A stretch of DNA of 64,000 bases from Candidatus Yanofskybacteria bacterium RIFCSPHIGHO2_01_FULL_44_24 (GCA_001794215.1 MGJK01000011.1:3170-67169), one strand, 5' to 3'; positions 46,081 through 64,000 are shown, counted from the stretch's first letter. Made by a program: numbers and translations. The notes: generated by a model not told the origin, from the sequence alone.

Positions 46081-46249
46081 TTTTCATTTTTCAATTTTCA
46101 AAATTTTTTTGAAAATCAATAACTGAAAATCGGGTAAAAATTAACTTAGAAATTATATCGGATTTATGAAATAAGTTCAAGGAAAGCTCTAACTCTTATA
46201 TGGGCCCGGTCTAAGACAAATTAAAAGCCCCGCATAGGGGCCGATTAAC

Positions 46250-47233: not shown

Positions 47234-47294
47234 AAAATCCTAATTGTCAAAACAAAAACCCCTTGCGGGGCGTCTGAAAGAGGTGGGGGGTCGG

Positions 47295-47879
47295 TTACTT
47301 TTTATCGTCGTTTTTTTTGTATTCTTCTCCCCGCACCACAATCAATCGCTCCAGATACAGTAACCCCTTTACTTTTTTATCGCCTTCTAATTTTTCGACG
47401 GCCGTTCTGAGTTTATCTATGTCAAAAGTAAATGAATCGGGCGTATCTACGTATACTAAATTGCCGCTCTGATCATACATAAAGTTATTAAAAAAACCGT
47501 CTAAGTTGGCGCCTGTTTCTGCATATATTTTATACCGTAGACCGTGGATCTCGGCATCCTTCTCTTTACCATCCTTAAAATATTCATTTTTTCTTCCCCG
47601 AACACCCGCCCTAACTCTTTTATTGATAGTGGCATTCGGATCTGAAAATGATCCGTGAATATCCCTTATATTATCCGGATATAAAAGATGCAGGATTTTA
47701 GACAGGTAGAACCGGCCTCGAGCTTGATTTGCTAAATATCTTTTGTCGTCATCTGTCTCTCCCTGGTATTCAAAAGCTCCGATGACTCTTTCGGGATTAT
47801 CTTTATCTTCGTATACTTTGCGCTCTCCCCCTTCTCCTAATTTCCTTCCTGTCTTGATTTTGAGCTTATCAATGCCCAT
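47295..47879 (-). CDS. hypothetical protein with kinase-like motifs (Gly-rich loop LGEGGERKVY; HGSFSDPN catalytic-loop-like)
   Basis: Resembles the APH/Kdo-kinase HGDxxxxN loop, but with Ser in place of Asp. Only 194 aa. Confidence 0.35.
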   Translation of the reverse strand: MGIDKLKIKTGRKLGEGGERKVYEDKDNPERVIGAFEYQGETDDDKRYLANQARGRFYLSKILHLLYPDNIRDIHGSFSDPNATINKRVRAGVRGRKNEYFKDGKEKDAEIHGLRYKIYAETGANLDGFFNNFMYDQSGNLVYVDTPDSFTFDIDKLRTAVEKLEGDKKVKGLLYLERLIVVRGEEYKKNDDKK

Positions 47880-47883
47880 TAGA

Positions 47884-48909
47884 TTAAATCTTAGGCGATT
47901 CTATTTTCCCGGCATCGGCGCTGTCGCCTATCTCAACGACATTCTTCACCCTATCCACCATAAGAGAAAGGCGTTTTTCTGAGTCATCATAAGCTGATTT
48001 GGAATCTGAGATATGCTTGCCGAGTTTTCTAAAGTTTTCCGATAATTTCTCTCCGTCAGTAGAAATCTGGGCTAAGCGCTTGATAATATCCTTGGTCTGC
48101 TTGCTGAACTGAACGTCTTTGAACCAATGCATAATGGCTGATATAGAAAGAGCAAAAGTATTGGGTGAAACCATGAAAACCTTCTTACTGCGGGCATAGT
48201 TGGGTATGTCGGCGTCCTTCACATTATTAATCAGCTCGTAATACACTGTCTCGGCCGGTATATACATAAGGGCCAGATCAGCCGTTCCTTCTGACGGCAG
48301 GATATACTTGGATGATATTTCATCGACTTTCTTTTTGACATCCGAGAAGAAGGCCTTACGAAAAACCTCTTTGTTTATTTCATTATCCGCGTTAACCATT
48401 TTCTCAAAATTTTCCCAGTTAAACTTGGCATCTATCGGTAAAATAATTCCATTCGGCAGTTTCAAAATTGCATCTACCGCCTCGCCCGATTTGAAATAAT
48501 ATTGTATTTCATATAAATCCTTCGCAAAGTACTGAGACAGCGCCGCCTCAAGAGACATTTCACCCCATATACCCCGAAGCTTGGGCGATTTAAAAATATT
48601 CTGAAAAGAGGAAACATCTCTGACGGATTCGTGAACACGCTTTAAATTTTCCTGAAGCATGGTGATCCCCTGAGTAAAACCGTGCACTTGCTGATGTACG
48701 CTCAGGGTGGCCCTTTCGGCCGCCTGGCGGTTTCTCTCAAGCTGTTCGTTGATAAGATTGGAGAATGAGTCGAGTCTTTGATGCAGGACGGCGTATTCAT
48801 TCACGTTTTCCTTTTTTCTCGATTTTAAAAGATAGTAGAGATTGATTACGAGAGTAACCAAAACCGCTCCGGAAACGATAATGGATAGGATTACGATGGG
48901 GTTAGTCAT
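47884..48909 (-). CDS. rmuC: DNA recombination protein RmuC
   Basis: N-terminal TM, coiled coil, and C-terminal PKLRGIWGE...LPNG..ILPIDAKF motifs of the RmuC family. Confidence 0.8.
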   Translation of the reverse strand: MTNPIVILSIIVSGAVLVTLVINLYYLLKSRKKENVNEYAVLHQRLDSFSNLINEQLERNRQAAERATLSVHQQVHGFTQGITMLQENLKRVHESVRDVSSFQNIFKSPKLRGIWGEMSLEAALSQYFAKDLYEIQYYFKSGEAVDAILKLPNGIILPIDAKFNWENFEKMVNADNEINKEVFRKAFFSDVKKKVDEISSKYILPSEGTADLALMYIPAETVYYELINNVKDADIPNYARSKKVFMVSPNTFALSISAIMHWFKDVQFSKQTKDIIKRLAQISTDGEKLSENFRKLGKHISDSKSAYDDSEKRLSLMVDRVKNVVEIGDSADAGKIESPKI

Positions 48910-49093
48910 GATTAGAGTATATAATATTATGTTGTTGCGGTTAAGGCAACCTGTCCGTTCGTTCGAAATTTGGGAACGGAGAGCTCATATCGCTACGATC
49001 GACAGGACCGCCCATTCCAAGCCTGTGGATTATATAAATAGACAGATCCCAATTAATATAGTAGAATTTAATCAAATAAACTAATTAACTAAC

Positions 49094-49465
49094 ATGTATA
49101 AATATATACGCGATCGTTTCGGTGTTGTACCCCTAATGGCCATCGGCTTAGTCATCGCCGTAGGTGGAGTCTTGATCCTCCAGAACAGTGTATCGGTTAG
49201 AGTTAATCTGGGCTCGGCCGAGTATGAATACTACGAAGGCGATGGCGCTCCTTGCGCAAAATTTTCCGATAATCCGTATTACTGTGGAGGTCAAAACATA
49301 GGCGATAAATGTACGTATGAGAGCGGGTGGCTTTGGTGGAAAAAGACTAACAGTGGTACCTGTCAGCAAGAGGACGGTAAACAAAATACTGACAGACAGC
49401 CAATTTGTTATTGCAAAACCGGTACGGAAGAAGATTCAGATTCAGGATACGATCTGTACGAATAG
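49094..49465 (+). CDS. membrane-anchored Cys-rich small protein (123 aa)
   Basis: N-terminal TM anchor followed by a domain with 8 Cys (CAKF..YYCGG..CTYE..CQQE..CYCK). Confidence 0.45.
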   Translation: MYKYIRDRFGVVPLMAIGLVIAVGGVLILQNSVSVRVNLGSAEYEYYEGDGAPCAKFSDNPYYCGGQNIGDKCTYESGWLWWKKTNSGTCQQEDGKQNTDRQPICYCKTGTEEDSDSGYDLYE

Positions 49466-49574
49466 CAGTCTCCTCTTATCAATTTAAAACACCCCTCGCG
49501 GGGTGTTTTAAATTGATTTTCCATCATCAATGTTTTAAAATATCGCAAGCACATTTATAACTGCGGGGTAATGA

Positions 49575-50192
49575 GTGAGGAGCGGTCGGACAGACAAAGA
49601 CCGCTTCTGGGCGGTCTTTGTAATCAATCTGATTATCTTCATAGCTGAACTGCTCGTCGGTCTTTATTCGGGAAGCCTGACGATGCTATCGGACAGCTTC
49701 CATCTTTCCATTCACGTCATAGCGTCGATAGTCGCCCTGATATCGGAGTATGGCTTTCTTGGCCTTCCGCAGGAGAAAACTAAGAAATGGTCAGCGGCAG
49801 TTAATATTTTTCTATTCTTCATTCTTGCCCTTGTTATCGGCAATGAGGCATGGGAAAGACTTCTCAACCCTAAGGCAGTCAACATAACAATAGTTTTCTT
49901 TTTGGTCGGTATCGCCGGATTATTGGCTAACTGGTATACAGTTAAGGTCTTAGAGAGCAGTCCCGATGAAGAATTCTCAGAAAATAGAGATATCCTATTT
50001 TGGGAAATGATTTATGACTACGTAAGCTCGATCATACTGATAGCCTGCGCCGTGATCATATATTTCACCGGCTGGTACATACTCGACCCGATCTTATCGA
50101 TCGTCCTCGCTCTGACGATGGTCTTTAAAGCAGTGCAGATGTCTTTGAGATTCCGCAGTATCCATCATGGACACGGTCCTCACCGCCACTGA
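49575..50192 (+). CDS. cation diffusion facilitator family transporter, short form (TM domain only)
   Basis: SLTMLSDSFHLSIHVIASI (HxxxD-type motif in TM2/TM5 pattern). Lacks the usual cytoplasmic C-terminal domain. Confidence 0.6.
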   Translation: MRSGRTDKDRFWAVFVINLIIFIAELLVGLYSGSLTMLSDSFHLSIHVIASIVALISEYGFLGLPQEKTKKWSAAVNIFLFFILALVIGNEAWERLLNPKAVNITIVFFLVGIAGLLANWYTVKVLESSPDEEFSENRDILFWEMIYDYVSSIILIACAVIIYFTGWYILDPILSIVLALTMVFKAVQMSLRFRSIHHGHGPHRH

Positions 50193-50218
50193 CAAAAACC
50201 TCGCAATCGCGAGGTTTT

Positions 50219-51562
50219 TTATCGGAGGCCGTTCACTATTTTTACAAATTGATCGTTCCGGTCGTACTCGTTACGGAAAAGCCTGCCGAAAGAAGCAAAG
50301 GCCGGACTGAAAAGAATGATATCCCCTCTTTCAGCCATGCCTATCGCCGATTTTATGCAATCTTTCAAATCCCGGCTCCGATGAACGGCTATATTTTTTA
50401 TTTTTAATACTTGGGGTTTTATTTTTTCCGTACCGCTGCCTTCAATCAATACTACGGCCCGGCATCTCTTTTTAACCTCGCTCAAAAGACCGGCCATGTT
50501 CAGCCCTTTATCGGATCCGCCCATGATTAAAACTATGTTCCTCGACCCTGTCAGGTCGAGAGCTTTGAGACCGGCGATAGTCGCCTCTGGAGTAGTGGAA
50601 TTATTATCATTGTATATCTTTATTCCGCGAACTGTATTCAGATATTCAAGCCGACCCGGGACACCCCGGAAATTTTCAACGGCTTTCCTGATTACTGCTT
50701 CTTTTATCCTTAAGGCTCTTCCGACTCCTATGGCTAAGGCGGCATTATCCCTGTTGTGCTCGCCCGGAATTTTTAACTTATAACTTTTCGGGGGATCTTG
50801 AGATGAAACGGCGATAATCCGGCTTTTAATCTTTCGCTTATAGAATTTTCTGATGACCGGTAGGAATTTTCTTTGGGTTACCAAAAAATCCTCCTTATCC
50901 TGATACTTAAAAACATTTGCCTTATCATTAAAGTACTTTTGCATACTGCCCCCGTAGTAATTGAGGTGATCCGGGAAAAAAGTGGTAAAAACTCCGACAT
51001 GGGGGCTGAGCTTCGAATCTCCGAATCCTTGAAGCTGCCAAGAATCCAATTCCAGGACGGCATAATCGCCGGGCTTAGCCTTCTTCAGCAACGGCAAGCT
51101 TGATCCACCTCGTATATTTCCGCCCACAAGCACCGGCCGGCCGGCCTGTTTTAATATACGGGATACGAGAAAGGTTACCGTGGACTTGCCTCTTGTTCCG
51201 GTAATGCCTATTACTTTGGCTCCCGACAGCTTAGCGAACAATGAGGCGTCCATTTCCACGGGAATCTTGTTTTTATGCGCTTCTTTTATATACGGTGAAT
51301 CAAGGGGCACTCCTGCCGCCTTTATAACCATGTCGCAATCTTTGAAATCCTTGAGATCGTGCCGGCCGAGAACATAACGGATGTTTTTGTATCTCTTTAG
51401 CTCCTGAAGACTTTGTTTTAATTCTCTATGGCTTTTAAGATCCGTAACCGTAAGTACGGCTCCGCAATCAGCCAAAAACTTAGCCACGCCGACTCCCCTG
51501 CCAAGAACTCCAAGACCCATCAGGGTTATTTTTTTATTTTTGAAATAAGACTTGTAACTCAT
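50219..51562 (-). CDS. murD: UDP-N-acetylmuramoylalanine--D-glutamate ligase
   Basis: N-terminal Rossmann (ITLMGLGVLGRGVG), Mur ligase P-loop GITGTRGKSTVT, C-terminal domain. Confidence 0.8.
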   Translation of the reverse strand: MSYKSYFKNKKITLMGLGVLGRGVGVAKFLADCGAVLTVTDLKSHRELKQSLQELKRYKNIRYVLGRHDLKDFKDCDMVIKAAGVPLDSPYIKEAHKNKIPVEMDASLFAKLSGAKVIGITGTRGKSTVTFLVSRILKQAGRPVLVGGNIRGGSSLPLLKKAKPGDYAVLELDSWQLQGFGDSKLSPHVGVFTTFFPDHLNYYGGSMQKYFNDKANVFKYQDKEDFLVTQRKFLPVIRKFYKRKIKSRIIAVSSQDPPKSYKLKIPGEHNRDNAALAIGVGRALRIKEAVIRKAVENFRGVPGRLEYLNTVRGIKIYNDNNSTTPEATIAGLKALDLTGSRNIVLIMGGSDKGLNMAGLLSEVKKRCRAVVLIEGSGTEKIKPQVLKIKNIAVHRSRDLKDCIKSAIGMAERGDIILFSPAFASFGRLFRNEYDRNDQFVKIVNGLR

Positions 51563-51590
51563 AGCTATTGGCGGAAATTAAAAGGCCGGA

Positions 51591-52199
51591 TTATTCCGGC
51601 ATAGCAAAAAATATATCCATATTTTGAGAGCGCATCTCTTTACCCATTAGAAATTGATGAATACGCATTTTAGTCAACTGACCCCTGTCATCAGTAAAGA
51701 AATCGCAAACTACTTTAATGTAATCGGGTAAATCCAATACTGTTATTGCATTACATTCTCCGGATCCTTCTGCCGGCAATGGCTGAATACTTTCTGCCCA
51801 CATAAGAGCAAGTCGAGGATCGTTGAATAGATATTTAGTGAATATCCCCAATCCATCATCATTATCTCCCTCGTATGGCTTATCACCTGTCAGTGTTTTA
51901 TAGTGTCTATTATCAAGATAGAAATCGATGGTTTTAAAATCTAAAAAGTCTTCTGCGTACTGAACTACTATCCTTTCTTCCCCTGGACTCCAAGGACTTT
52001 TATGTCGTAGTTCCATCTTAGCCGGAAAATAAGACATCCGATAGTACGCCGTACCAGAGCCTCTCGGATAATATTTTCCTGCTCCTTCACCGGTGAATTT
52101 TTTAATCATTAGATCTCTCAAAACATCGCCAAGCCTTACCCCCATCATACTCCTCCGCTTTTTAAGTTTGCTGAGATCAGTTAAACATAGCTGGCCCAA
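51591..52199 (-). CDS. hypothetical protein (202 aa)
   Basis: ORF only. No family recognised. Confidence 0.4.
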   Translation of the reverse strand: MGQLCLTDLSKLKKRRSMMGVRLGDVLRDLMIKKFTGEGAGKYYPRGSGTAYYRMSYFPAKMELRHKSPWSPGEERIVVQYAEDFLDFKTIDFYLDNRHYKTLTGDKPYEGDNDDGLGIFTKYLFNDPRLALMWAESIQPLPAEGSGECNAITVLDLPDYIKVVCDFFTDDRGQLTKMRIHQFLMGKEMRSQNMDIFFAMPE

Positions 52200-52212
52200 T
52201 TCCGCAAGACTA

Positions 52213-52494
52213 TTATCTTAACCTCAACGATCGTAGCCACCGAATAAAATAAGTAATACCAGAAACCACGATAAATGCTCCGAATAGATCTACGGCAAAG
52301 TTAGCTATGGAAAAAGACCGGCAAACTCCCCCATCAGGACAAAGTCCTCCATAAAAATAGAAGCCGAGAGGAAATCCCATGACCTGCGATCCATCATAAG
52401 CCGGGGCATCCGCAGTCATAAAATATGAGACAAATGAAGCGGTTAGAAAAAGTAAAACCGATAAAACAATATCTATTAAAACTTTTTTACTCAT
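52213..52494 (-). CDS. small membrane protein (93 aa)
   Basis: Two TM segments. Confidence 0.35.
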   Translation of the reverse strand: MSKKVLIDIVLSVLLFLTASFVSYFMTADAPAYDGSQVMGFPLGFYFYGGLCPDGGVCRSFSIANFAVDLFGAFIVVSGITYFIRWLRSLRLR

Positions 52495-52570
52495 TAGCTA
52501 TTCAAATAAATCTTAGTGGGTTCCGTCGATGCTAATTAGAACCAAGTTGTGCAGAAATTACTGAATTGGG

Positions 52571-52888
52571 CTATTCATTCTCTGAGCCAGCCCCACCTTT
52601 TTCCAACCGTTTTTCGTATTTAGCTAAAACTTTGTCAATTACTTCTTCCAAATCAACATTCAATGAATTTGCAATAGTAACCACAGAATATAGCAAATCA
52701 CCAAGTTCCGATTTCATCTCATCTTTAAATTCTGCCCTCTTTTTCCCATAATCCGTCATTTTAAGCATTTCTTTTGCAACTTCTCCAAGTTCTGATATGG
52801 CATCGAGAATTTTATACTCTGGAGCCGAATCAAGATTATGCTCTTTTGAAAATTCTTTTATTCTTTTTTGCAATTCTTGGATTGTCAT
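52571..52888 (-). CDS. MazG-like nucleotide pyrophosphohydrolase (small all-alpha NTP-PPase)
   Basis: EExxE/D-type motifs (ELGEVAKEM...ELGDLLYSVV). Confidence 0.75.
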   Translation of the reverse strand: MTIQELQKRIKEFSKEHNLDSAPEYKILDAISELGEVAKEMLKMTDYGKKRAEFKDEMKSELGDLLYSVVTIANSLNVDLEEVIDKVLAKYEKRLEKGGAGSENE

Positions 52889-52905
52889 AAATTATATATT
52901 TTATG

Positions 52906-52923
52906 GTAGATTTGGTGGACCCA
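52906..52923. repeat. 18-bp direct repeat of the tRNA-Ala 3' end (att-like left boundary)
   Basis: GTGGACCCAAGCGGACTC, identical to 55782-55799 inside tRNA-Ala. Confidence 0.7.
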
Positions 52924-53177
52924 AGCGGACTCCCTCCAAAGACGGACAAGCGAACCGCTCTGTCAATAAATAATGACGGGCCGCTTGTGGACCGTACCAG
53001 ATTCGAACCGCTGTCACAACTCTCGCAATCTTCCGATTGCTCGGTCGCGACCCCGTCTCATGGTATCACTCACCAAAAGCTCGTGATACATCATTACGAC
53101 TCTCAATTCTCTCAGAAAGCAAAGCAGTTTGCTTTCTTTCGTGGAATTGAGCCTCCTCATTGTCCCGATAGCAAGGG

Positions 53178-53273
53178 TGGTCTATTCTTGAAATAGTTCG
53201 GACGGTTTTCGCCGCCGCAGGCGGCGAAGAAAGCCCCCCGCGAAATTCCGAAATTGCGGCTCTGCCGCGCCGA
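53178..53273. repeat. IR-A left arm (96 bp, perfect inverted repeat of 54086-54180)
   Basis: Verified by hand reverse-complementation: GGTCTATTCTTGAAATAGTTCGGACGG...GCTCTGCCGCGCCGAT. Confidence 0.85.
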
Positions 53274-53372
53274 TGACAATTTCAAGTTTTTCTTTGGCGG
53301 CACAAATTCAATATGAATTTTAATCTAAAAACGCAAAAAATACAAAAAGAAAAAACTCCAGCAACAAGCAGG

Positions 53373-54008
53373 CTACTGGAGTGGGTGTCGGCGAATTTTT
53401 TCCGCCGCGGAAAGAACGTCGTTGGGAATTTCTACTTTTACAATATCGCCTTTCTTGGCGTACTCATTGAGTCTTTCAAGTTCACCGAGAAGTCGACTGA
53501 TTCGACGAGAAGTGAACCACTCTTTGGGCATTGGAAACGCACTACCGTAGACAGTAATTTCAGGAAATTGCTTTCGGAAAGTGGCGCACGACCTTCTCAA
53601 CAGAGGGGGCATGGCGCACAGGATTACCGATTTTGGATTTACTCCGGCATTGCGGCACGCAGACATTCCCAAAAGAACATTTTCGAGAGAGTTTGTAGAT
53701 TCTTTCTCAAGTATCAGGGCTTTTTTAGGAACACCATCGGATTCAATCAACGAAGCGTAAAATTCTGCTTCCGTTGCAAATCCATCTGGAATGGCATCTC
53801 TGCCTCTACCAGAGATGACAATGCGCGGTGCCTTACCTTTTTTCCAAAGTTCTGCGGCATGGTGTGCTACCTGCGGTTCGTAATGACCAAAAACAAAAAT
53901 GGTGTCAGATTGCGGCAAGTCTTTGGTTGGGACGCTTTCGGTCAGAAACTCGGTTACTGTGTCAACGAACGGCTGAATAGTTTTCAAGTCGGCCTCCTTT
54001 GTTTCCAT
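53373..54008 (-). CDS. DUF218 (YdcF/SanA-like) domain protein
   Basis: LILEKESTNSLENV matches the DUF218 LEdrSrnTyENa core. Flanked by the IR-A arms. Confidence 0.6.
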   Translation of the reverse strand: METKEADLKTIQPFVDTVTEFLTESVPTKDLPQSDTIFVFGHYEPQVAHHAAELWKKGKAPRIVISGRGRDAIPDGFATEAEFYASLIESDGVPKKALILEKESTNSLENVLLGMSACRNAGVNPKSVILCAMPPLLRRSCATFRKQFPEITVYGSAFPMPKEWFTSRRISRLLGELERLNEYAKKGDIVKVEIPNDVLSAAEKIRRHPLQ

Positions 54009-54085
54009 AGGATTAAAAATTTTCTTTTCCCAAAATTAAAATACAGTTCGAGCCGATATTTTTACAGGTTCTTTGGCAATTTTTA

Positions 54086-54180
54086 TCGGCGCGGCAGAGC
54101 CGCAATTTCGGAATTTCGCGGGGGGCTTTCTTCGCCGCCTGCGGCGGCGAAAACCGTCCGAACTATTTCAAGAATAGACC
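54086..54180. repeat. IR-A right arm
   Basis: Reverse complement is identical to 53178-53273. Confidence 0.85.
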
Positions 54181-54275
54181 ACATTTTAGAAAACCGCAAG
54201 TCATTGGAAGCCGCCTCGCTTTGCTCGGCGGCCAATTCGTATTGAATTTTGGGCGAAAAAATCAGTTGGCGATTA
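54179..54275. repeat. IR-B left arm (97 bp, perfect inverted repeat of 55689-55785), abutting IR-A
   Basis: CCACATTTTAGAAAACCGCAAGTCATTGGAAGCCGCCTCGCTTTGCTCGGCGGCCAATTCGTATTGAATTTTGGGCGAAAAAATCAGTTGGCGATT. Confidence 0.85.
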
Positions 54276-54312
54276 TGTATTTTTGGGAAAGAAAATTTTT
54301 AATCAAAACCAC

Positions 54313-55809
54313 ATGAAATACATACTTTACGCTCGCAAGAGCACCGAGGATGAAGACAGACAAATTTTAAGCATTGAGGCCCAAGTCTTTGAGTTAAAAG
54401 AATTTGCCGCCAAAGAAAAACTTGAAATTGTCGCCTCTTTTCAAGAGGCAAAAACTGCCAAAGAACCTGGGCGAATTAAATTCGCAGAAATGTTGTCATT
54501 GATTGAAAAGGGTAAGGCCGAGGGCATACTTTCATGGAATCCAGACAGATTGGCAAGAAACAGCGTTGACGGCGGAAGGATAATTCACATGATTGATCGC
54601 GGCTTGATTAAGTCATTGAAATTTCCAACGTTTTGGTTTGAACCGACACCACAGGGTCTATTTATGCTCCAAATTGCTTTTGGCCAAAGTAAATATTACG
54701 TGGATGCTTTACGCGAGAATGTAACGCGTGGAATGAGGCAAAAAGTGAGAAACGGCGTATGGCCAAGCAAAGCTCCGCTCGGCTATCTCAATAATCCGAA
54801 AACCAGAGGAATTGATATTGACAGAGAAAAAGCCCAGAAAGTTAAAAAGATTTTTGAACTTTACGCCACCGGAAGCTACAACTTGCGAGAATTGGCCGAG
54901 TGGTGCAAGCGAATAAATCTTAAAAGCAATTTGGAGTGGAACATCGCCATCTCTCAAGTCCATAAAATACTCCAAAATGTTTTCTACATTGGCTTAATGA
55001 AATACAAAGGTGAAATCTACGAAGCAACCCACGAGCCGTTAATTTTAAAGAAACTTTTTGATAAAGTGCAGGAAATTATGCGAGAGAAAGGAAAACCGCA
55101 AAAAGTGAAGAAACATAATTTTGCTTTTCTTGGCTTAATGAAATGTCCGTGTTCTGCTACGATAACCGCTGAAAAGAAAATCAAGCCAAGTGGCAAAGAA
55201 TATATTTACTATCGTTGCACAAAAAAGAAAGGACCTTGCCAAGAAAAGCACTTTTTGCGGCAGGAAGAACTATACACCCAAATCAAATCTTTTCTTCAAA
55301 AAGTTTCTTTGTCGAGCCACGACACCAAGAAGGTTTTATCTGAATTAGACAAAGAGGAATCACAAGCAAAAGAACAATCAAAAATCACTGTTCAAAATCT
55401 CAAGGCCAGTTTTTCTGAAATTGAAAAGAAGCTTGAAAAACTTCTCGATGTCTATTTGGCCGAAACTATTACCGCCGAAGAATACGTTTCGCGCAAAGAA
55501 AAATTGGTCAAACAAAAGGTCGGTCTGCAAGAGCAAATCCGAGATTTTGAACAGAAAGGCCTGTCGTGGCTCGAACCGGCTCGTGAGTTCGTTTTATCCT
55601 TAAATCAAGCCTCAAAACTGCTTGAATCAGAAAACAAAACAGAAATGACAACATTTCTCAAAAATATCGGCTCGAACTGCATTTTACAGAATCGCCAACT
55701 GATTTTTTCGCCCAAAATTCAATACGAATTGGCCGCCGAGCAAAGCGAGGCGGCTTCCAATGACTTGCGGTTTTCTAAAATGTGGACCCAAGCGGACTCG
55801 AACCGCTGA
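54313..55809 (+). CDS. large serine recombinase (resolvase/invertase catalytic domain, recombinase domain, zinc ribbon and coiled coil)
   Basis: N-terminal YARKSTEDEDRQ...SIEAQ catalytic region. CPCS...C..C zinc ribbon at about aa 290-320. Start set at MKYILY. The last 36 codons lie within the IR-B right arm. Confidence 0.8.
   Translation: MKYILYARKSTEDEDRQILSIEAQVFELKEFAAKEKLEIVASFQEAKTAKEPGRIKFAEMLSLIEKGKAEGILSWNPDRLARNSVDGGRIIHMIDRGLIKSLKFPTFWFEPTPQGLFMLQIAFGQSKYYVDALRENVTRGMRQKVRNGVWPSKAPLGYLNNPKTRGIDIDREKAQKVKKIFELYATGSYNLRELAEWCKRINLKSNLEWNIAISQVHKILQNVFYIGLMKYKGEIYEATHEPLILKKLFDKVQEIMREKGKPQKVKKHNFAFLGLMKCPCSATITAEKKIKPSGKEYIYYRCTKKKGPCQEKHFLRQEELYTQIKSFLQKVSLSSHDTKKVLSELDKEESQAKEQSKITVQNLKASFSEIEKKLEKLLDVYLAETITAEEYVSRKEKLVKQKVGLQEQIRDFEQKGLSWLEPAREFVLSLNQASKLLESENKTEMTTFLKNIGSNCILQNRQLIFSPKIQYELAAEQSEAASNDLRFSKMWTQADSNR
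55689..55785. repeat. IR-B right arm (overlaps the recombinase C-terminus and 3 nt of tRNA-Ala)
   Basis: Reverse complement is identical to 54179-54275. Confidence 0.85.
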
Positions 55810-55855
55810 CCCCCTCATTGCAAATGAGGTGCTCTACCAGCTGAGCTATGGGCCC
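55783..55855 (-). tRNA. tRNA-Ala (anticodon TGC)
   Basis: Minus strand GGGCCCATAGCTCAGCTGGTAGAGCACCTCATTTGCAATGAGGGGGTCAGCGGTTCGAGTCCGCTTGGGTCCA. Cloverleaf folds by hand. Confidence 0.9.
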
Positions 55856-55884
55856 ACCCTTGCTATCGAGGATCCTCGATTTCA
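55856..55884. repeat. direct repeat 1 containing the perfect 16-bp palindrome ATCGAGGATCCTCGAT
   Basis: GGCCCACCCTTGCTATCGAGGATCCTCGAT (including the tRNA 5' end). Repeated at 56243-56278. Confidence 0.7.
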
Positions 55885-55920
55885 CTATTATATTAAAATT
55901 GTAAATCGGGACAAACAAGG

Positions 55921-55948
55921 CGCTCTACCAGCTAAGCTAACGGCCCCT
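55921..55948 (-). pseudogene. tRNA 5'-half fragment (tRNA-Ala-like acceptor and D-arm only)
   Basis: Minus strand GGGGCCGTTAGCTTAGCTGGTAGAGCGC matches the tRNA-Ala 5' half, then diverges. Confidence 0.5.
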
Positions 55949-55960
55949 GCACCCAGAAAG

Positions 55961-56215
55961 CTATGCCAAAGAGTTTTTAATTCTTCGCTTTAGCTGGGTA
56001 TGTGCCTGCGAAAACCTTTTTAAGTTTTCTTCCCGATATTTGGCATCTTTCTCGGATTTATAATACTCGCAATATATCAACTCGTATGGACCCTTATTCT
56101 TGGTGGCTGTACTTTGGTTTTTATTATGTTCTGCTAATCTTCTCTCCAGGTTGGCAGTATAGCCTATATACAACGAGTTATCTTTGAGGCTTTTGATTAA
56201 ATATATACAGAACAT
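55961..56215 (-). CDS. GIY-YIG nuclease domain protein (84 aa)
   Basis: IYLIKSLKDNSLYIGYTANLERRLAEHN: GIY...YIG, R, E/H/N spacing. Confidence 0.75.
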   Translation of the reverse strand: MFCIYLIKSLKDNSLYIGYTANLERRLAEHNKNQSTATKNKGPYELIYCEYYKSEKDAKYREENLKRFSQAHTQLKRRIKNSLA

Positions 56216-56242
56216 AATATTAGCTTCCTGGGTGAGGGGCTA

Positions 56243-56278
56243 ACGGCCCATCATTATTTATCGAGGATCCTCGATCTG
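56243..56278. repeat. direct repeat 2 with the same 16-bp palindrome
   Basis: GGCCCATCATTATTTATCGAGGATCCTCGAT. Confidence 0.7.
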
Positions 56279-56362
56279 ACTACTGCAGTCGGTGTGTTTT
56301 ACAAAAAATGTAAAATCGTTTATATTTTATCACAGATTTTTAACATTTAAAAGCGGGGCTCC

Positions 56363-56719
56363 GTGAGCGAAAATCAGAAAGATTCACCCATTACAATCAC
56401 TGAAAAAGCGGCTGAAAAACTTCTCAAGCTGATAAAGGATAAGGATTTAACTCCCGATAAAGCATTCCTCAGAGTTTTCATACACGGAGGCGGATGCTCC
56501 GGATTCCAGTATGGCCTGATGCTCGAAGGCAGTCCTTCGGAAAACGATAAAATTTTTGAATCGAACGGAGCAAAAATCGTAATTGATCCTATCAGCCTCA
56601 GATATCTCAAGGGTGCGGAAGTAGATTTATCAAATGACCTGATGGAAAGTTTCACGATAAAGAATCCTAATGCCAAGTCAACTTGCGGCTGCGGACAGTC
56701 ATTCCAGCCCGAAAATTAA
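56363..56719 (+). CDS. erpA: iron-sulfur cluster insertion protein (HesB/IscA/ErpA family)
   Basis: GGGCSGFQY ... CGCGQSF conserved Cys triad. Confidence 0.85.
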   Translation: MSENQKDSPITITEKAAEKLLKLIKDKDLTPDKAFLRVFIHGGGCSGFQYGLMLEGSPSENDKIFESNGAKIVIDPISLRYLKGAEVDLSNDLMESFTIKNPNAKSTCGCGQSFQPEN

Positions 56720-56727
56720 GCAACTCA

Positions 56728-57705
56728 TTAAGAGTTGCTTTTTAAATACCCGAGAACCAATGCCTTTGCTTCGTCGATACTTTTGCTGTCCATCAATTGA
56801 GCCCGCAAATCCTTAGCTCCCGGCCAATCATTGATGTATATTTTGAAAAACCTCTTGAGCGTATCGAAGTTTTTGACGGTGGTCTTATCCTCTCCCTTCC
56901 ATAGTTTTGAAAAATTGTCGCAATGCTGAAGCATCAACTTAATCTTATCTTTCGGCCTGATTGAGTCCGGTTTGATATTTTCGTTGAAAAACCACGGATT
57001 GTTAAATATACCGCGCCCGATCATAATCCCGTCCAATTTATACTCGGATGCTTTTTGTCTTGCTTCCGCCATATCCTTTATATCGCCATTACCGACAACT
57101 AAAGTACCAACGGGCTTGGCCATTTCGGCTATCTTTCCCATCTCATCCCAATGAGCAGGGACAGAGGACATCTCTTTACGGGTCCGCCCATGAACTACAA
57201 GCGCGGCGATCCCCTCTTCGACAAGATGGGGTATCCACGATTCAGTTTCAATTTTATTGTAACCGAGCCGAGTCTTCACCGATATCGGCAAAGAGCCGGC
57301 AACTTGTTTTGCCGCCTTAATTAACGCGCGAGCCAATTTAGGATTTTTTATAAGCGCAGCCCCCGCTCCTTGTTTCTCGATAGACCTGTCCGGGCATCCC
57401 ATATTTATATCAACCCCGTCAAAACCCATTTTTACAGCCATCTCAACGCATCTTTTAAGTTTCTCCGGATCAGCAGTGAAGAACTGAGCAACGATAGGCC
57501 TTTCATTTTTTTCAAAATAAAGCTCGCCCCTGAATTTTTCCGGACCTAAAGCACAGATACCGTCGCATGAAACAAATTCAGTATAGAATACGTCCGGTCT
57601 TCCGGTCTGAATAATTATCTGCCTGAAAGCCCAATCGGTAACATTAGCCATCGGTGCCAGAACCGTAAAAGGCTTATTCAATTTTCCCCAGAAACCATAG
57701 TTCAT
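56728..57705 (-). CDS. dus: tRNA-dihydrouridine synthase
   Basis: TIM-barrel Dus motifs (LAPMANVTD, catalytic Cys in GCP). Confidence 0.85.
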   Translation of the reverse strand: MNYGFWGKLNKPFTVLAPMANVTDWAFRQIIIQTGRPDVFYTEFVSCDGICALGPEKFRGELYFEKNERPIVAQFFTADPEKLKRCVEMAVKMGFDGVDINMGCPDRSIEKQGAGAALIKNPKLARALIKAAKQVAGSLPISVKTRLGYNKIETESWIPHLVEEGIAALVVHGRTRKEMSSVPAHWDEMGKIAEMAKPVGTLVVGNGDIKDMAEARQKASEYKLDGIMIGRGIFNNPWFFNENIKPDSIRPKDKIKLMLQHCDNFSKLWKGEDKTTVKNFDTLKRFFKIYINDWPGAKDLRAQLMDSKSIDEAKALVLGYLKSNS

Positions 57706-57761
57706 AAAAGCACATTAGTATAGAAAAACCCTCCGCCGAGGATTTTTCTATACTACTAATG

Positions 57762-57835
57762 TGCGCATGCCTGGATTTGAACCAGGGACCTCGTCATTAT
57801 CAGTGACGCGCTCTAACCAGCTGAGCTACATGCGC
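57762..57835 (-). tRNA. tRNA-Ile (anticodon GAT)
   Basis: Minus strand GCGCATGTAGCTCAGCTGGTTAGAGCGCGTCACTGATAATGACGAGGTCCCTGGTTCAAATCCAGGCATGCGCA. Confidence 0.9.
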
Positions 57836-58506
57836 ATTATTGAATCAAGATAGGCCTTTATACCCATCATAATTTCCCTCTTAACTGAACTGCTCGAAAC
57901 CTTTATCGAACAAGTGCCATGCCTAAACGATTCTTTGTATAAAAAACTAGATTTTTTTAGTTTTGAAACATAGGTCTTATAAAACTGCCCTCTTTTAAGG
58001 CATAGCTCATTTTTCCAGAATTCTTTCTCTTTTTCAAGCTCCATGTTCTCGTAGAGATGAAGCTGAGCCCTGAGCTTTGATCTCGGTAGTTTAAAAAAAT
58101 AAATTAACCATTTTATAAAAAATCTAAGGATTCTCGGGTCGGTATTGGCCAAAGACACATTATAATAATCTGTCTTAGATCCTTCAGCTAAGTACAAAGT
58201 CAGCCCGGAAATTAAAAACGATATTTTTGAAAATTTTCCAAGTCTTTTTAAATACCGCCCATATATCTTCTCATCTTTCTTCTGTCTTATTGCTCTCATG
58301 GTATTACGGAACTTTTCACGACTCGCCTCTCCTTTTGACCAAGCCGATCTTCTTAACTCCAAGATTCGCTCCTCGCTCAAAGGAAATTGCCTTAACCAAG
58401 CACTTAAAGTGCTCTTGGCAACAGGAATTTGAGCTTTAATTGACCCATAGCCCAACTGCTGTCCTATTCTCATCTGGATAGCTTTTTCTTTTAGTTCTTG
58501 ATGCAT
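57826..58506 (-). CDS. hypothetical HTH protein with a LAGLIDADG-like motif. 3' end overlaps tRNA-Ile by about 10 nt
   Basis: N-terminal HTH (SIKAQIPVAKSTLSAWLRQ). GLTLYLAEGSKTD resembles a single LAGLIDADG motif. Confidence 0.35.
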   Translation of the reverse strand: MHQELKEKAIQMRIGQQLGYGSIKAQIPVAKSTLSAWLRQFPLSEERILELRRSAWSKGEASREKFRNTMRAIRQKKDEKIYGRYLKRLGKFSKISFLISGLTLYLAEGSKTDYYNVSLANTDPRILRFFIKWLIYFFKLPRSKLRAQLHLYENMELEKEKEFWKNELCLKRGQFYKTYVSKLKKSSFLYKESFRHGTCSIKVSSSSVKREIMMGIKAYLDSIMRM

Positions 58507-58631
58507 TTAATTCGAACCTTTGTTATTAGATTGCTCAGTAATATATCTTAACAAAGAAAAATATAGCAATCAACTATTTGCTATATCACGAGCAGTTCTT
58601 CGCACAAGAAATTAAAACTAAAAGAGGGCTA

Positions 58632-60353
58632 TTAAGCCCCCAGCAACAAAGCGGTAACTTTGTCGCTTAAATTCTCTTTATTGCCCGGACTGAACTTTAA
58701 CAGCCGGCGCAGAATAGACATCTGGGTTCTCTGGGTGTCGCCCTCCGAACACATGACCACGATTTCCCGCGTCAGCCTTTCTAATTCAAAAAGGTTGTCG
58801 TTAAAAATCAACCCCGTCAAAAGACTTTCTTTCTCCGTTCTATTTTTGGCGAATGCAGCCAAAACGCTTTCCAGAACATATATTTTAATCAGGCAATCCG
58901 CTAAACTGCTCAAAACAACCTGATGTTTTTCGAGTTCGAGTCCGAATTTTTCGTAAGCCGATCCGGCTGCCATCAAAACGGCTTTTTTGGCATTATTCAG
59001 GTAGATCTTAAGGCGTTCGACGTAATCTTCCGGCTCCGTCTGAATCGAAGGGGTCATTGATTCGTTGATTACTTTTTGAATCGCATCCTTGACCGGAAGA
59101 CTTCCGGTCATTGCTTTCTTAAACAGCATGCCCGCCAAGAGCAATCTGTTTATTTCATTGGTACCTTCGAAGATTCGGTTGATTCGAGAATCACGATAAT
59201 GCCTTTCGGGATGGCCCTCGCAGAATCCGGAACCGCCATGAACCTGAACATTCTCATCGACAACAAAATCAAGGGCTTCACTGCAGAATACTTTGACAAT
59301 AGAGCATTCTATGGCGCATTCTTCGATGGCCTTCAAAATAGCCTTGGAATCTTTCGCGTCGACACCATGGATGACTTCATCGAGCATTCCGGCAGTTCTG
59401 TAAACAACGGACTCCATCGCATAGTTCAAGGCCGCCATTTGGGCAAGCTTGTGACGGATAACTCCGAAATTGCCGATTTGCCGGCCGAACTGTTTCCGCT
59501 CTTTCGAATACTGCAAGGCCTCATCCACGCATACCCTGCCCGCTCCCAAACAAGCCGCACCCAATTTAAATCTGCCAAGGTTCAAAATATTGACCGCAAT
59601 CTTGAAGCCATTGCCCTGCTCGCCAAGCATATTCTCAACCGGTACTTTTACCGAATCGAGAATCAACGTCGCCGTAGAAGAGCCCTGAATACCCATCTTA
59701 TGCTCTTCTTCTCCAACTCTTAAGCCTTCAAAAGTTTTTTCAACGATAAAGGCCGTCGGGTCCTTGCCGTTTACTTTGGCAAAAATAATGAACAGGTCGG
59801 CAAAACCTCCGTTTGTAACGAATATTTTCTCGCCGTTCAATATAAGGCACTTTCCATCTTCGGATTTTACCGCAGTCGCCCGAATACTGTTGGCATCGGA
59901 TCCGGCCACCCCTTCCGTCAAAGAATAAGCCGCCACCCACTCCCCTGAAACAAGCTTGGGCAGATACTTTTTCTTCTGTTCTTCGGTTCCGAAAAACCTG
60001 ATCGGAAGAGTGCCAATCCCCGTATGCGCCAAAAACGTACAGGCAAAGGAACCCTGCTTGGAAACATGCTCGGCTACGATAGCGGCGACTACCGCTCCAA
60101 GATCAGTCCCCCCATACTCTTCGGGAACTTCAACTCCCAAGAAACCAACCTCGGCCAGCTCACGGATAAGCTCTCTCGAAAATCCGAAGTCCTTGGATTC
60201 AATTCTCCTAATAGCTTCATCGGTAATCAGTTTTTGATCAACCACCTCCGCTATCGTTTCCTTGATTAGCCGCTGTTCGTCGGTCAGATTATTGACCGTG
60301 AGTATATCGGGAATTTTATCGCTCGGAAGAATGAATTCTCCGCCCTTCGGCAC
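58632..60353 (-). CDS. acyl-CoA dehydrogenase family protein (long form)
   Basis: 573 aa. ACAD N-terminal, middle beta-barrel and C-terminal helical domains. Confidence 0.75.
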   Translation of the reverse strand: MPKGGEFILPSDKIPDILTVNNLTDEQRLIKETIAEVVDQKLITDEAIRRIESKDFGFSRELIRELAEVGFLGVEVPEEYGGTDLGAVVAAIVAEHVSKQGSFACTFLAHTGIGTLPIRFFGTEEQKKKYLPKLVSGEWVAAYSLTEGVAGSDANSIRATAVKSEDGKCLILNGEKIFVTNGGFADLFIIFAKVNGKDPTAFIVEKTFEGLRVGEEEHKMGIQGSSTATLILDSVKVPVENMLGEQGNGFKIAVNILNLGRFKLGAACLGAGRVCVDEALQYSKERKQFGRQIGNFGVIRHKLAQMAALNYAMESVVYRTAGMLDEVIHGVDAKDSKAILKAIEECAIECSIVKVFCSEALDFVVDENVQVHGGSGFCEGHPERHYRDSRINRIFEGTNEINRLLLAGMLFKKAMTGSLPVKDAIQKVINESMTPSIQTEPEDYVERLKIYLNNAKKAVLMAAGSAYEKFGLELEKHQVVLSSLADCLIKIYVLESVLAAFAKNRTEKESLLTGLIFNDNLFELERLTREIVVMCSEGDTQRTQMSILRRLLKFSPGNKENLSDKVTALLLGA

Positions 60354-60446
60354 TCGCCGCCTCGCCTGTTTTTAAAAGTTCAGGTACGCAGACTATCTAT
60401 GCCATAATCGATTTAAAGAGTAAATACTTGTCAAATTTGGCCTCTT

Positions 60447-61019
60447 GTGGTAGGATCTTATATGCCTTTAATGACCCCTGACCCAAAAATGAAGGGTGTC
60501 CATGACGCCCTGAAAAGGAAATTTAAAGGCCGGCAACTATTATTCGGCCAGGGTTTTATTGACGCAAAAGTCGTATTTGTGGCCGAAAACCCCATATCCG
60601 AAAACGGGTCCAAGGACCTGACAAGATGGACTCCTCAATCAGAAAAGCTCCTTAATCAGCTTATCCGATCAGCCGGAATCAATAAAAACAAAACTTACTT
60701 CACTACCGTATTAAAGCACTGCCCTCAGCCGAACAAAGTACCTACATCCAAAGAGATAAAATCTTACGTTCCCTTCTTAAGGGAGGAGCTTAAAACCATA
60801 GGACCGGCCATCGTGGTCACTCTGGGCAACTTAGCCCTTAATGGAATCGGCTTGCGCCAGCCATTGGCTAATATACACGGAAGGAGCTTCAATTTCGGAA
60901 GCTATGAACTGTTCCCTACCTTCCACCCGGAAACCGCATTAAAAAGCACAGAAATAAAAACGCTCTTAGAGGGCGACTTTATAAAGCTCAAGCAAATGAT
61001 AGACAGCAAGAAGACCTAA
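60447..61019 (+). CDS. uracil-DNA glycosylase superfamily protein (family 4/5-like)
   Basis: GQGFIDAKVVFVAENP (compare GEGPxxAxxMxVGEAPG) and the ...GNLALN...H-P-E C-terminal motif. Confidence 0.6.
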   Translation: MVGSYMPLMTPDPKMKGVHDALKRKFKGRQLLFGQGFIDAKVVFVAENPISENGSKDLTRWTPQSEKLLNQLIRSAGINKNKTYFTTVLKHCPQPNKVPTSKEIKSYVPFLREELKTIGPAIVVTLGNLALNGIGLRQPLANIHGRSFNFGSYELFPTFHPETALKSTEIKTLLEGDFIKLKQMIDSKKT

Positions 61020-61043
61020 AAAATCCACCAGACGGTGGATTTT

Positions 61044-62042: not shown

Positions 62043-62191
62043 AATAAGGTTAAATTTGACTCAAAATCCGAATTTCGAAATCCGAAATAAAATCCGAAAA
62101 TCTTAAATATCAAATCCTAAATAGTTTGGAATTTGAAATTTATAATTTTGATATTATTTCGAATTTCGTATTTCGTGCTTCGAATTTTCTG

Positions 62192-62485
62192 CTATTTGCA
62201 TCTTCCGCAATCTCCGCATCTGCAGGTCATTCCGTGACTGCACGTATCCGCATTGCCCGTACCAGCAGCCATGCCCTTCCAATGTCTACCGCAACAGCCG
62301 CAGGCTTTAGCGCCAAAAGCTAAGAGCGTTAAGACGACAACGGACCAGGCATACTGACTTTCTTCAAATCCGAATACCAAAAACCCTTCCCACGTACTCC
62401 AGAAAAACAAAACGCCGGCTAAGCAAGCCAAAAGATGAAGAACTTTAACCACCCAATGATGAAAACATCTACAATCTCCTGACAT
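62192..62485 (-). CDS. Cys-rich small membrane protein (97 aa)
   Basis: Two TM segments plus C-terminal CGCCGRHW...CSHGMTCRCGDCGRC. Confidence 0.35.
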   Translation of the reverse strand: MSGDCRCFHHWVVKVLHLLACLAGVLFFWSTWEGFLVFGFEESQYAWSVVVLTLLAFGAKACGCCGRHWKGMAAGTGNADTCSHGMTCRCGDCGRCK

Positions 62486-62585
62486 AAAGCACCTCCCTTC
62501 CTGATTAGCTTAGGGTCAAGAGATCAAAGCTGAAAGCAAGAAAATATTCCGCTTTAGACTTTAAGCCTCATGCCGAAAGCCGGAT

Positions 62586-63272: not shown

Positions 63273-63327
63273 GGTTGTTTAGTAAGGTTTATATTATTTA
63301 TAATTATACAATAACTGCTTAATTTGA

Positions 63328-63969: not shown

Positions 63970-64000
63970 TGATACATATCTGATCGGAGTAATATGTCCG

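Follow-up and report, generated by a model that had tools for sequence, protein, structure and literature searches.

How two neighboring genes at a tRNA gene come to lie each within its own pair of long inverted repeats is the question raised by a locus of Candidatus Yanofskybacteria bacterium RIFCSPHIGHO2_01_FULL_44_24. The window analyzed is a stretch of 64,000 nt (GCA_001794215.1 MGJK01000011.1:3170-67169), and all positions are counted from its first letter. Beside a tRNA-Ala gene it carries a gene for a large serine recombinase (LSR) and a gene for a DUF218 protein. The original prediction was of an integrative element at this tRNA, containing two adjacent invertible segments. Its first part is borne out by the LSR domains, by the junctions between attachment (att) sites and by an empty site in a related strain. 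For the repeats a different explanation is favored, with some reserve: positions 53181-55785 are probably a compact integrative element of Patescibacteria that is moved by its LSR and carries two inverted copies of its own attachment site, attP, one of which has been split by integration.

The arms of the first pair, inverted repeat A (IR-A, 53177-53274 / 54085-54182), are 98 nt long and 100% identical, or 98% identical when extended to 105 nt. Those of the second pair, IR-B (54179-54279 / 55685-55785), span 101 nt with a single mismatch and include a perfect 97-nt core. Thus the perfect identity predicted for all arms holds for IR-A and for the core of IR-B, but not for IR-B at its full length. 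GTGG or its complement CCAC stands at every outer end of both long repeats, and the two pairs share 4 nt, CCAC (54179-54182), rather than the 2 bp first proposed. The DUF218 gene (53373-54008, minus strand) is the sole gene within IR-A, and IR-B encloses the body of the recombinase gene (54313-55809), whose stop codon lies 28 nt into the tRNA gene; the gene positions confirm this part of the prediction. Each arm sequence occurs twice in the window, where shuffled sequences are expected to give 0 occurrences. Chance and a common genome-wide repeat, the latter having been named as part of what would speak against the prediction, were ruled out as the source of the arms, both arm sequences being confined to these sites in the window.

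The layout was checked in independent assemblies, namely 18 groundwater contigs from the Rifle aquifer that carry the exact recombinase or DUF218 protein. All 18 are colinear with the window, across the repeats, as far as each extends. A 30-kb MEGAHIT contig named k141 (ERZ4903072) agrees with the window at 100% identity along the 19,688 nt compared (44313-64000), a span that takes in the whole element; if that name gives the final k-mer, it exceeds the length of both repeat arms. Many contigs break within the arms. For example, in GCA_001795655.1 one contig (MGKL01000022) ends at window position 54272 and another (MGKL01000017) begins at 54463. No inverted isomer of either segment was found in the 18 contigs, although assembled contigs are a weak assay for minority isomers.

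The recombinase belongs with integrases by its domains. The PF00239 catalytic domain is matched over profile positions 2-145 of 145 (E = 1.7e-20), and the N-terminus, YARKSTEDEDRQ, has the R-x-S-T motif, the columns of which are conserved in 51 homologues. PF07508 (Recombinase) follows with E = 1.4e-14 and PF13408 (Zn ribbon) with 26.0 bits against a cut-off of 25.3, and residues 169-306 align to the structure of the C-terminal domain of A118 integrase (4KIS, E = 2e-6). Residues ~330-440 are rich in K, E and L and give only a weak coiled-type Pfam match (PF05873, E = 0.008). HTH_7 has no match in the 498-aa protein. The element contains no tyrosine recombinase, its sole recombinase being of the serine type, and no open reading frame (ORF) besides the recombinase and the cargo gene. 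Judged by this domain set, the enzyme is an integrase-type LSR and not a Hin/Gin-type invertase; the label "Piv-like", also attached to it originally, presumably does not apply on family grounds. A Hin/Gin-like switch with dedicated inversion sites is therefore not upheld, the enzyme being a 498-aa protein of the Resolvase + Recombinase + Zn-ribbon type and the 98-101-nt arms reading as halves of att sites together with coding sequence.

The key to the repeats lies in the C-terminus of the recombinase, which has more than 7000 homologues. Their C-termini are conserved through ...F[SP][KV][MW]W and diverge right after. Most run on into antisense peptides of a tRNA T-arm such as TRGELNP, TQADSNR and TYRESNPDL (ESNP/DSNR), and in the window the last 8 codons (TQADSNR and the stop) come from the antisense strand of the tRNA gene. 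A minority of homologues end instead in a conserved native tail, x[IL]Lxx[IV]RTxFAAxGGE. This tail is present in the window, detached from the gene: a minus-strand ORF in the block between the two genes (54235-54083) encodes ...FSKMW followed by SILEIVRTVFAAAGGEE, the native tail of the homologues, and the sequence at 53177-53274, in frame after the core, would also encode SILEIVRTVFAAAGGEE. Let f denote the end of the conserved coding sequence and Q the native tail that follows the GTGG core. Since the middle block encodes the conserved native tail, f-GTGG-Q represents an intact recombinase 3' end with its downstream sequence, and is read as the attP of the element, with the crossover inside the 3' end of the recombinase gene. 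The outer arms would derive from a second attP that integration cut in two, giving attL (B-GTGG-Q at 53177) and attR (f-GTGG-tRNA at 55782). IR-A and IR-B thus each pair one half of the split attP with the intact, inverted attP.

An unoccupied tRNA-Ala site in relatives had been proposed as a check, and a strain contig (L104; ENA ERZ28564412, 1142 nt) has one. It begins with CCTCATTGTCCCGATAGCACGG, GTGG and ACCCAAGCGGATTCGAACC, joining window positions 53155-53176 (21/22 nt) straight to tRNA-Ala, and its remainder is 99.9% identical to 55782-56901. L104 is the unoccupied chromosomal site, attB. Because it joins the left flank, x, directly to the tRNA, the insertion is 53181-55785. The 18-nt copy of the tRNA end that had been taken to delimit the insertion is exact (52915-52932 = 55782-55799), but it lies outside, 245 nt beyond the left end of the element and within a degenerate copy of the 3' portion of tRNA-Ala; on the left the element is bounded by the GTGG at 53177-80. 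As attL, this direct repeat was ruled out by the empty site, which keeps the DNA up to 53176. Comparison of region x (52889-53176) with the other copies of the element gave no similarity to any of them, and the simplest reading of the degenerate tRNA copy (52915-52965) is as an older scar or as part of the trailer, and not as an end of this element. Reverse-complemented, 53166-53180 gives the tRNA 5' leader (55854-55868); flank B (53166-76) is the natural tRNA trailer and pairs with that leader. The T loop differs between the two strains, being the canonical TTCGAAT in L104 and TTCGAGT in the occupied tRNA-Ala of the window; the lone C/T change, at 55797, falls in the presumed recombinase-binding motif.

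The same architecture recurs throughout a family. Relatives were collected from the contexts of close homologues (L011-L017) and from a scan of GTDB species representatives, which gave at least 340 relatives, and 80 loci, nearly all of them from Patescibacteria, were fetched. The common order is x/core-Q, b', cargo gene (minus), U', e', c', Q'-core'-f', U, recombinase gene, f-core/tRNA (minus), where b, c, e and U are short modules described below. In 33/33 related loci with enough upstream DNA the junctions are x/core-Q, the reverse complement of f-core-Q, and f-core/tRNA. Both repeat pairs abut in these 33 loci, mostly on a shared 4-6-nt core (range 1-10 by blastn arm ends). Arm identity within an element has a median of 99% in the 33 elements, which themselves diverge to 52% protein identity; near-perfect arms are therefore a property of the family and tell nothing specific about recent events at this locus, from which recent or ongoing recombination or gene conversion had been proposed. 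Elements measure 2.4-4.9 kb with a median of 2.7 kb, this copy being ~2.6 kb. The flank x is unrelated from locus to locus. The target tRNAs include Ala, Leu, Arg, Phe, Ile, Val, Lys, Gln, Glu, Ser, Met and Trp, and the core co-varies with the terminus of the tRNA (GTGG, TGGTGC, GGCTG and TGGCGG, among others).

Several copies are found in single metagenome-assembled genomes (MAGs), three in JACPEK01 and two in MGKI01. Recombinases at least 90% identical, all of one 90%-identity cluster, occur in MAGs assigned to Microgenomates, Woesebacteria, Yanofskybacteria, Parcubacteria and Sungbacteria, which implies either very recent transfer across deep lineages of the Candidate Phyla Radiation (CPR) or cross-contamination in binning. 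The multi-copy MAGs and this cross-lineage cluster are signs of mobility and horizontal transfer. Tandem arrays also occur. In L014 an upstream, diverged recombinase owes its native tail to the Q of the element that follows; in L077 an older, 84%-identical unit lies distal to a younger one; and two-cassette arrays are seen in L049 and L077. Such arrays fit the re-use of attR as a target, a plausible course given that conservation in attB is confined to the tRNA half.

Alignment of 27 crossover sites indicates how so many tRNA genes can be used. Conservation is strong in the Q half of attP (.gTATtcTtgAAaTAGTtCGaACgcaTTTCGc); in attB, the tRNA half has the consensus GGAnTCGAACC and the x half shows no conservation at all. 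TCGAAC occupies +12..+17 on the tRNA side and +17..+22 in Q, a 5-bp outward shift that can be compared in the right halves only, since the left half of attB is not conserved. A motif of the zinc-ribbon domain 5 bp farther out in attP than in attB is reportedly a hallmark of LSR sites, from work on the A118/LI integrase. With a core of 4-6 nt, hybrid junctions and an empty site, the sites (27-33 loci) conform to the short-core attP/attB pattern of LSRs. The shared T-loop motif would explain the colonization of essentially any tRNA gene by the family.

The favored reading rests on the family-wide architecture, the logic of the junctions, the empty site, the LSR domain set, the native tail and the 5-bp motif offset; a purpose for the second attP is inferred. 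The attP would consist of f (the last ~100 nt of conserved coding sequence), a core that mimics the tRNA 3' terminus, and Q (the native tail, with the T-loop-like TCGAAC). Two inverted copies of it would separate a recombinase segment from a cargo segment containing one variable gene. Excision by attL x attR would release a small circle with two inverted attPs. In integration, predicted to be catalyzed by the LSR itself, the attP at the recombinase 3' end would recombine with attB (tRNA trailer, core, acceptor/T-arm), splitting that copy so that Q passes to attL and f to attR. The recombinase would thereby exchange its native tail for a few tRNA-encoded residues, and the other attP would remain intact in the middle. 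Two inverted-repeat pairs would result, Q/Q' on either side of the cargo and f'/f on either side of the recombinase, abutting at a core common to both. Both attP copies may be usable, and the identity of the arms may be kept by gene conversion or occasional flipping. The features of the element and its flanks are collected in Table 1.

Table 1. Features of the integrative element at tRNA-Ala and of its immediate flanks (window coordinates).
Feature	Position	Strand	Remark
x, chromosomal flank of attL	53155-53176	.	Natural 3' trailer of tRNA-Ala, left half of attB; 21/22 nt match to start of L104
Crossover core GTGG at attL	53177-53180	+	Identity boundary in window and 33 relatives
IR-A left arm; Q, putative right (P') half of split attP, at attL	53177-53274	+	100% reverse complement of 54085-54182
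b', inverted copy of recombinase-gene nt 93-120	53275-53302	-	28/28 nt vs 54405-54432
Terminator-like hairpin and T run after DUF218 gene	53355-53382	-	
Cargo gene, 211 aa, DUF218	53373-54008	-	PF02698, E = 4.8e-14
U', inverted copy of recombinase 5' leader (54279-304)	54011-54036	-	
e', inverted copy of recombinase nt 1348-1374 (55660-86)	54037-54063	-	
c', approximate inverted copy of recombinase nt 138-157 (54450-69)	54064-54084	-	
Putative intact second attP (f-core-Q); IR-A right arm + IR-B left arm	54085-54279	-	Core CCAC 54179-54182
U, recombinase gene 5' leader	54279-54304	+	Inverted copy at 54011-36 upstream of cargo gene
Large serine recombinase gene, 498 aa	54313-55809	+	PF00239, PF07508, PF13408
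b + hairpin (54433-49) + c, nucleotide-level conserved element in recombinase coding region	54405-54469	+	
IR-B right arm; f, putative left (P) half of split attP, at attR	55685-55785	+	Codes for last conserved recombinase residues
Crossover core GTGG at attR	55782-55785	+	Reverse complement of tRNA 3' terminus ...CCAC
tRNA-Ala(tgc), intact; conserved right half of attB	55782-55855	-	ARAGORN; Rfam tRNA 70.4 bits
Degenerate copy of tRNA-Ala 3' part, outside element, in trailer region	52915-52965	-	18 nt exact, then 18-nt T-loop insertion

The cargo is unrelated from one element to the next and includes DUF218 proteins, S-adenosylmethionine (SAM) methyltransferases, a short-chain dehydrogenase/reductase (SDR), an NAD(P)HX dehydratase, a flavin adenine dinucleotide (FAD) oxidoreductase, NUDIX proteins, MazG/deoxyribosyltransferase, and secreted or pilin-like proteins. 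Modules b, c, e and U bracket every cargo gene and run in its own sense. U', e' and c' jointly form its leader, in an order kept in the relatives, and b' adjoins the distal arm in the relatives too. In the recombinase gene, b and c flank a hairpin with a 7-bp stem. Identity at third codon positions in 51 genes is 0.90 for b and ~0.75 for e, against a background of ~0.45, and b, c and e are near-invariant. Invariance at third positions marks b, c and e as functional nucleic-acid elements in both places. It is because they are invariant across the family, rather than through gene conversion, that their copies around the cargo match the recombinase gene of the same element. No simple history, be it one duplication, one inversion or one circular permutation of the recombinase gene, was found to yield the module order b', U', e', c'. 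One speculation is that the modules are a copy of the recombinase segment in which hairpin-enclosed domains were skipped and the first 92 nt swapped for cargo.

The recombinase coding region also shows structure conserved at synonymous sites, comprising the hairpin at 54433-54449 and nested long-range helices (54486-54500 / 55644-55658; 55047-55061 / 55296-55310; 54667-81 / 54922-36; 55388-401 / 55541-54). In 51 homologues the hairpin pairs in 97%, with compensatory changes; helix H1 pairs in 84%, with 6 pairs changed on both sides; and helix H3 pairs in 94% and is near-invariant. Over all helices 80% of cells pair, compared with 40-52% when the partners are slid. Many of the pairs are U-G on the sense strand, which suggests a fold of the mRNA rather than of a DNA intermediate.

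Three relatives (L045, L087 and L012) have the recombinase segment in the opposite orientation relative to the tRNA, a ratio of ~37:3. In this state the tRNA gene lies upstream in sense orientation and is followed by f'-U-recombinase. The native tail is observed in L087 and L012; the contig of L045 stops inside the gene, its recombinase being 91% identical over the 359 residues on the contig. Such states would be predicted where integration can go through either attP or where a flip can occur. At this ratio the two attPs, or the two orientations, do not lead equally to lasting insertions. Transcription of the tRNA enters the recombinase gene in the rare state and runs toward it in the common one; selection against read-through is a plausible source of the bias. 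The predicted pair of invertible segments therefore fares unevenly: the geometry fits and relatives with a reversed recombinase segment exist, but the 18 contigs hold no inverted isomer of this element.

Other relatives are rearranged in further ways. L012 and L013 carry the same recombinase (P0003) in two samples with the methyltransferase cassette in opposite orientation; L012 330-1202 is the reverse complement of L013 1-873 (99.8%), and the flanking blocks differ as well, so that the rearrangement is not a simple flip. L012 further has a tRNA-Ile upstream and, downstream of the recombinase gene, a third gene boxed by a 180-nt inverted repeat. L099 (ERZ27254763 k141_856425) occupies the same chromosomal site as the element of the window, and its recombinase gene is identical from nt 112 on, save for a diverged patch at 55578-55629. 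Relative to window 54008-54432, a divergence of 7-10% is seen in its middle attP, its leader and the opening ~110 nt of the gene, and the cargo side is not the same. This points to an exchange with a breakpoint at module b, that is, a natural mosaic made by replacement of the cassette side, or an assembly chimera. L116 (ERZ27293371 k141_317687) encodes a native-tail homologue and has two different attPs and no IR-B. Its upstream inverted attP and its own 3'-end attP differ in core and arms (GTGG-type and TGGTGG-type), apparently giving the element two attPs of different tRNA specificity. The ~2-kb L116 contig was considered as a possible circle and rejected; it is not circular, and its two attPs are different.

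Several observations weigh against the two-attP explanation. By the rules of canonical LSRs, which do not recombine attL, attR and attP with one another, the middle attP has no obvious partner in cis. Equivalent attPs would give about half of the insertions in reversed orientation, so that the observed ~37:3 obliges one to postulate a bias, and the unlike attPs of L116 indicate that identical copies are not obligatory. The 522-aa protein with the native tail, expected of the flipped or circular form, is absent by exact look-up from a collection of 15 billion proteins. For this element neither a circle nor a circle junction could be recovered, and it encodes no recombination directionality factor (RDF). 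The empty site is documented by one short contig alone (1142 nt, with 22 nt of left flank); a search of Joint Genome Institute (JGI) metagenome contigs with two patterns gave no match, the first pattern being over-strict in that L104 differs from it by 2 single-nucleotide polymorphisms. Furthermore, the model does not explain the copies of b, c, e and U around the cargo, nor how cargo is acquired.

Among the alternatives, a chimeric or fold-back join made at the repeats during assembly has in its favor the numerous contigs that terminate in the arms and the break of GCA_001795655.1 at the element. The layout is, however, the same across independent assemblies from different samples and assemblers, contigs named k141 included, and in 33 other genomes of unrelated studies, and its junctions have just 4-6 nt in common, far under the k-mer of any assembler; an artefact is already effectively refuted and its probability negligible. 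A genuine double inversion switch, in which the ~100-bp repeats are selected for frequent flipping by RecA or the recombinase instead of being a mere residue of integration, is a biological alternative that we consider unlikely. A flip of the recombinase segment would interconvert the 498-aa tRNA-tailed and the 522-aa native-tailed enzyme and let tRNA transcription either oppose or enter the gene, and a flip of the cargo segment would alter cargo expression. The geometry is exactly that of two invertible segments, and the median 99% arm identity in 33 diverged elements needs ongoing exchange between arms. Among relatives the recombinase segment is found either way round (reversed in L045, L087 and L012), but at the strongly skewed ratio given above, and for this element the alternative orientation is missing from the 18 contigs and the flipped protein from the collection. 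The methyltransferase cassette is reversed between L012 and L013, which share a recombinase; the blocks that flank it differ, so these two are not simple flip isomers. The many contig breaks inside arms would be expected from any repeat longer than k. Finally, the enzyme is of the integrase type, and canonical LSRs do not recombine attP with attL or attR.

A tandem origin starts from two circles with a single attP each, a cassette without a recombinase (attP-b'-cargo'-U') and a recombinase circle (attP-c-e-U-rec), which integrated in succession at the tRNA. The 268-nt f-core-Q-c-e block (54037-54279) then inverted across the 26-nt U'/U, a change that would persist by removing deletion-prone direct repeats. 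Inverting 54037-54279 between U' and U does restore a perfect head-to-tail array of two units, each core-Q...f-core. A cassette-only insertion of the predicted form is present at tRNA-Ile in L012, two-cassette arrays are known (L049, L077), and L011 has the recombinase attP followed by c-e-U-cargo in direct orientation. This history would, however, require an extra, unexplained inversion in every lineage; the un-inverted state is absent among 33 canonical loci, and simple recombinase-only insertions (x-Q-c-e-U-rec-f-tRNA) were not found among the examined loci. It is accordingly given rather low odds. More doubtful still is a single-stranded stage, either transformed single-stranded DNA or a long RNA, that must fold, for instance to rebuild a double-stranded attP or to prime the second strand, with pairing homogenizing the arms. 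The long-range helices of the recombinase gene, conserved at synonymous sites with some compensatory changes, would suit such a stage, but their many sense-strand U-G pairs point to mRNA structure and not to a DNA intermediate. The near-invariance of b, c and e at the nucleotide level would suit it too, but this alone explains their identity to the recombinase gene of the same element. All repeat modules stay complementary in diverged elements; on the other hand, no replication or nicking gene is present, and a folded single-stranded circle recombining with a duplex attB would, by reasoning, give hairpin-capped chromosome ends. Integration through an attP formed by a hairpin of single-stranded DNA, as in CTX phage, was ruled out on the same topology, since it would leave hairpin-capped ends instead of the observed layout.

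Compared with known systems, the two-attP element shares most with the serine integrases of phages and integrative and conjugative elements (A118/LI, phiC31, Bxb1, TP901-1; SCCmec Ccr; Tn4451 TnpX, Tn5397 TndX). They have the same Resolvase + Recombinase + Zn-ribbon set, conservative attP x attB recombination at a short identical core, the ~5-bp motif shift, and no long direct repeats at the ends. It differs from them in that the target is generic, the extreme 3' end of tRNA genes, apparently recognized through the T-loop, with one half of attB conserved. Furthermore, the attP lies within the 3' coding end of the recombinase gene, the C-terminal tail is swapped, and a second, inverted attP is present; and in ~2.6 kb there is one cargo gene and no RDF, replication or transfer genes. 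The Hin/Gin/Cin/Pin invertases and the shufflons resemble it in the serine catalytic domain and in segments bounded by inverted repeats beside a recombinase gene, and the conserved element in the 5' part of the recombinase gene loosely recalls, as an analogy only, the hin/gin enhancer. Those invertases, however, have ~190 aa with a C-terminal helix-turn-helix, 26-bp sites, Fis and an enhancer, whereas here the enzyme is a 498-aa LSR, the ~100-bp repeats read as halves of att sites, the recombinase gene is inside a repeat pair, and no inversion within the population was detected in contigs.

The inside of a recombinase gene is also the site of attP in fuselloviruses of the SSV1 type, where the target is likewise a tRNA and integration alters the gene. 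The SSV1 integrase is a tyrosine recombinase and its gene is split in two, whereas here the enzyme is a serine recombinase and the last ~30 codons are exchanged. The inferred free form resembles the yeast 2-micron plasmid and plastid genomes in having two inverted, site-bearing repeats that divide a circle, so that flip isomers are possible. Flp of the 2-micron plasmid is a tyrosine recombinase and acts on the repeats to amplify copy number, whereas the present element has no replication function and its repeats would be integration sites. Integron cassettes are similar in having one promoter-proximal variable gene per unit, conserved boundary modules and multi-cassette arrays (as in L049), but here there is no IntI and there are no attC hairpin sites, the cassette boundaries being copies of segments of the recombinase gene. 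The nearest ecological analogue is provided by tRNA islands and tycheposons, small cargo elements at tRNA 3' ends in streamlined genomes that accumulate in tandem. They mostly use tyrosine integrases, rebuild the tRNA end by a long direct repeat and measure several to tens of kb; the present element has a 4-6-nt core, no flanking direct repeat, an interior of inverted repeats and a serine recombinase. Among 937 tycheposon elements, 27 encode an LSR instead of a tyrosine recombinase (bioRxiv 10.1101/2020.12.28.424599).

Searches of the literature turned up no account of this architecture, and the family is apparently an undescribed, widespread variant of serine-recombinase integrative elements. 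A bolder proposal is put forward tentatively. The family may be an unrecognized class of minimal mobile elements that spreads single genes among CPR bacteria by reading the tRNA T-loop, regulates itself through its two attPs and captures cargo through its modules. If so, integration would clip the native tail, set the recombinase gene head-on to tRNA transcription and lock the insertion, and an f'/f flip would re-arm the element. The b-hairpin-c, e and U modules would be cargo-capture sites or RNA signals, making the system a serine-recombinase counterpart of integron cassettes. CPR/Patescibacteria have tiny genomes and few recognized mobile elements, and the route by which they exchange genes is an open question. 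The family is abundant in them, each element being a tiny, self-contained vehicle for one gene (metabolic enzymes, methyltransferases, NUDIX/MazG, surface proteins). Recognition of the target seemingly through the T-loop, with a short core setting specificity, would supply natural specificity variants relevant to the reprogramming of LSRs for genome engineering. The attP embedded in the recombinase gene would also mean that integration edits the C-terminus of the enzyme that carries it out. The second inverted attP, the invariant modules and the conserved mRNA helices add further mechanistic interest.

Both sides of the tRNA-Ala gene hold features of their own. Downstream, a trailer of ~250 nt (52933-53180, minus strand) has a strong predicted fold with several hairpins and a minimum free energy of -88 kcal/mol, computed without a shuffle control. 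The trailer holds two pieces resembling a tRNA 3' end; a tRNA T-arm fragment placed originally at ~53020-53060 is instead a tRNA-like fragment at 52986-53013. A strain contig (L112) diverges from the window to the right of 53056, and each of the two sequences there has its own, different hairpin. An Rfam scan of 52000-58500 returned two tRNAs only; neither the x region nor the repeats matched a known RNA family. The trailer may be an unannotated structured RNA or the debris of older insertions. Just upstream of tRNA-Ala, a 24-nt repeat that includes the perfect palindrome ATCGAGGATCCTCGAT stands on both sides (55864-87 and 56259-82, 395 nt apart) of an 84-aa GIY-YIG gene (55961-56215, minus strand), and partial copies of the tRNA 5' half occur at 55912-46 and ~56236-46. 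The region 55856-56290 has the appearance of a small mobile GIY-YIG cassette that inserted into the leader of the tRNA.

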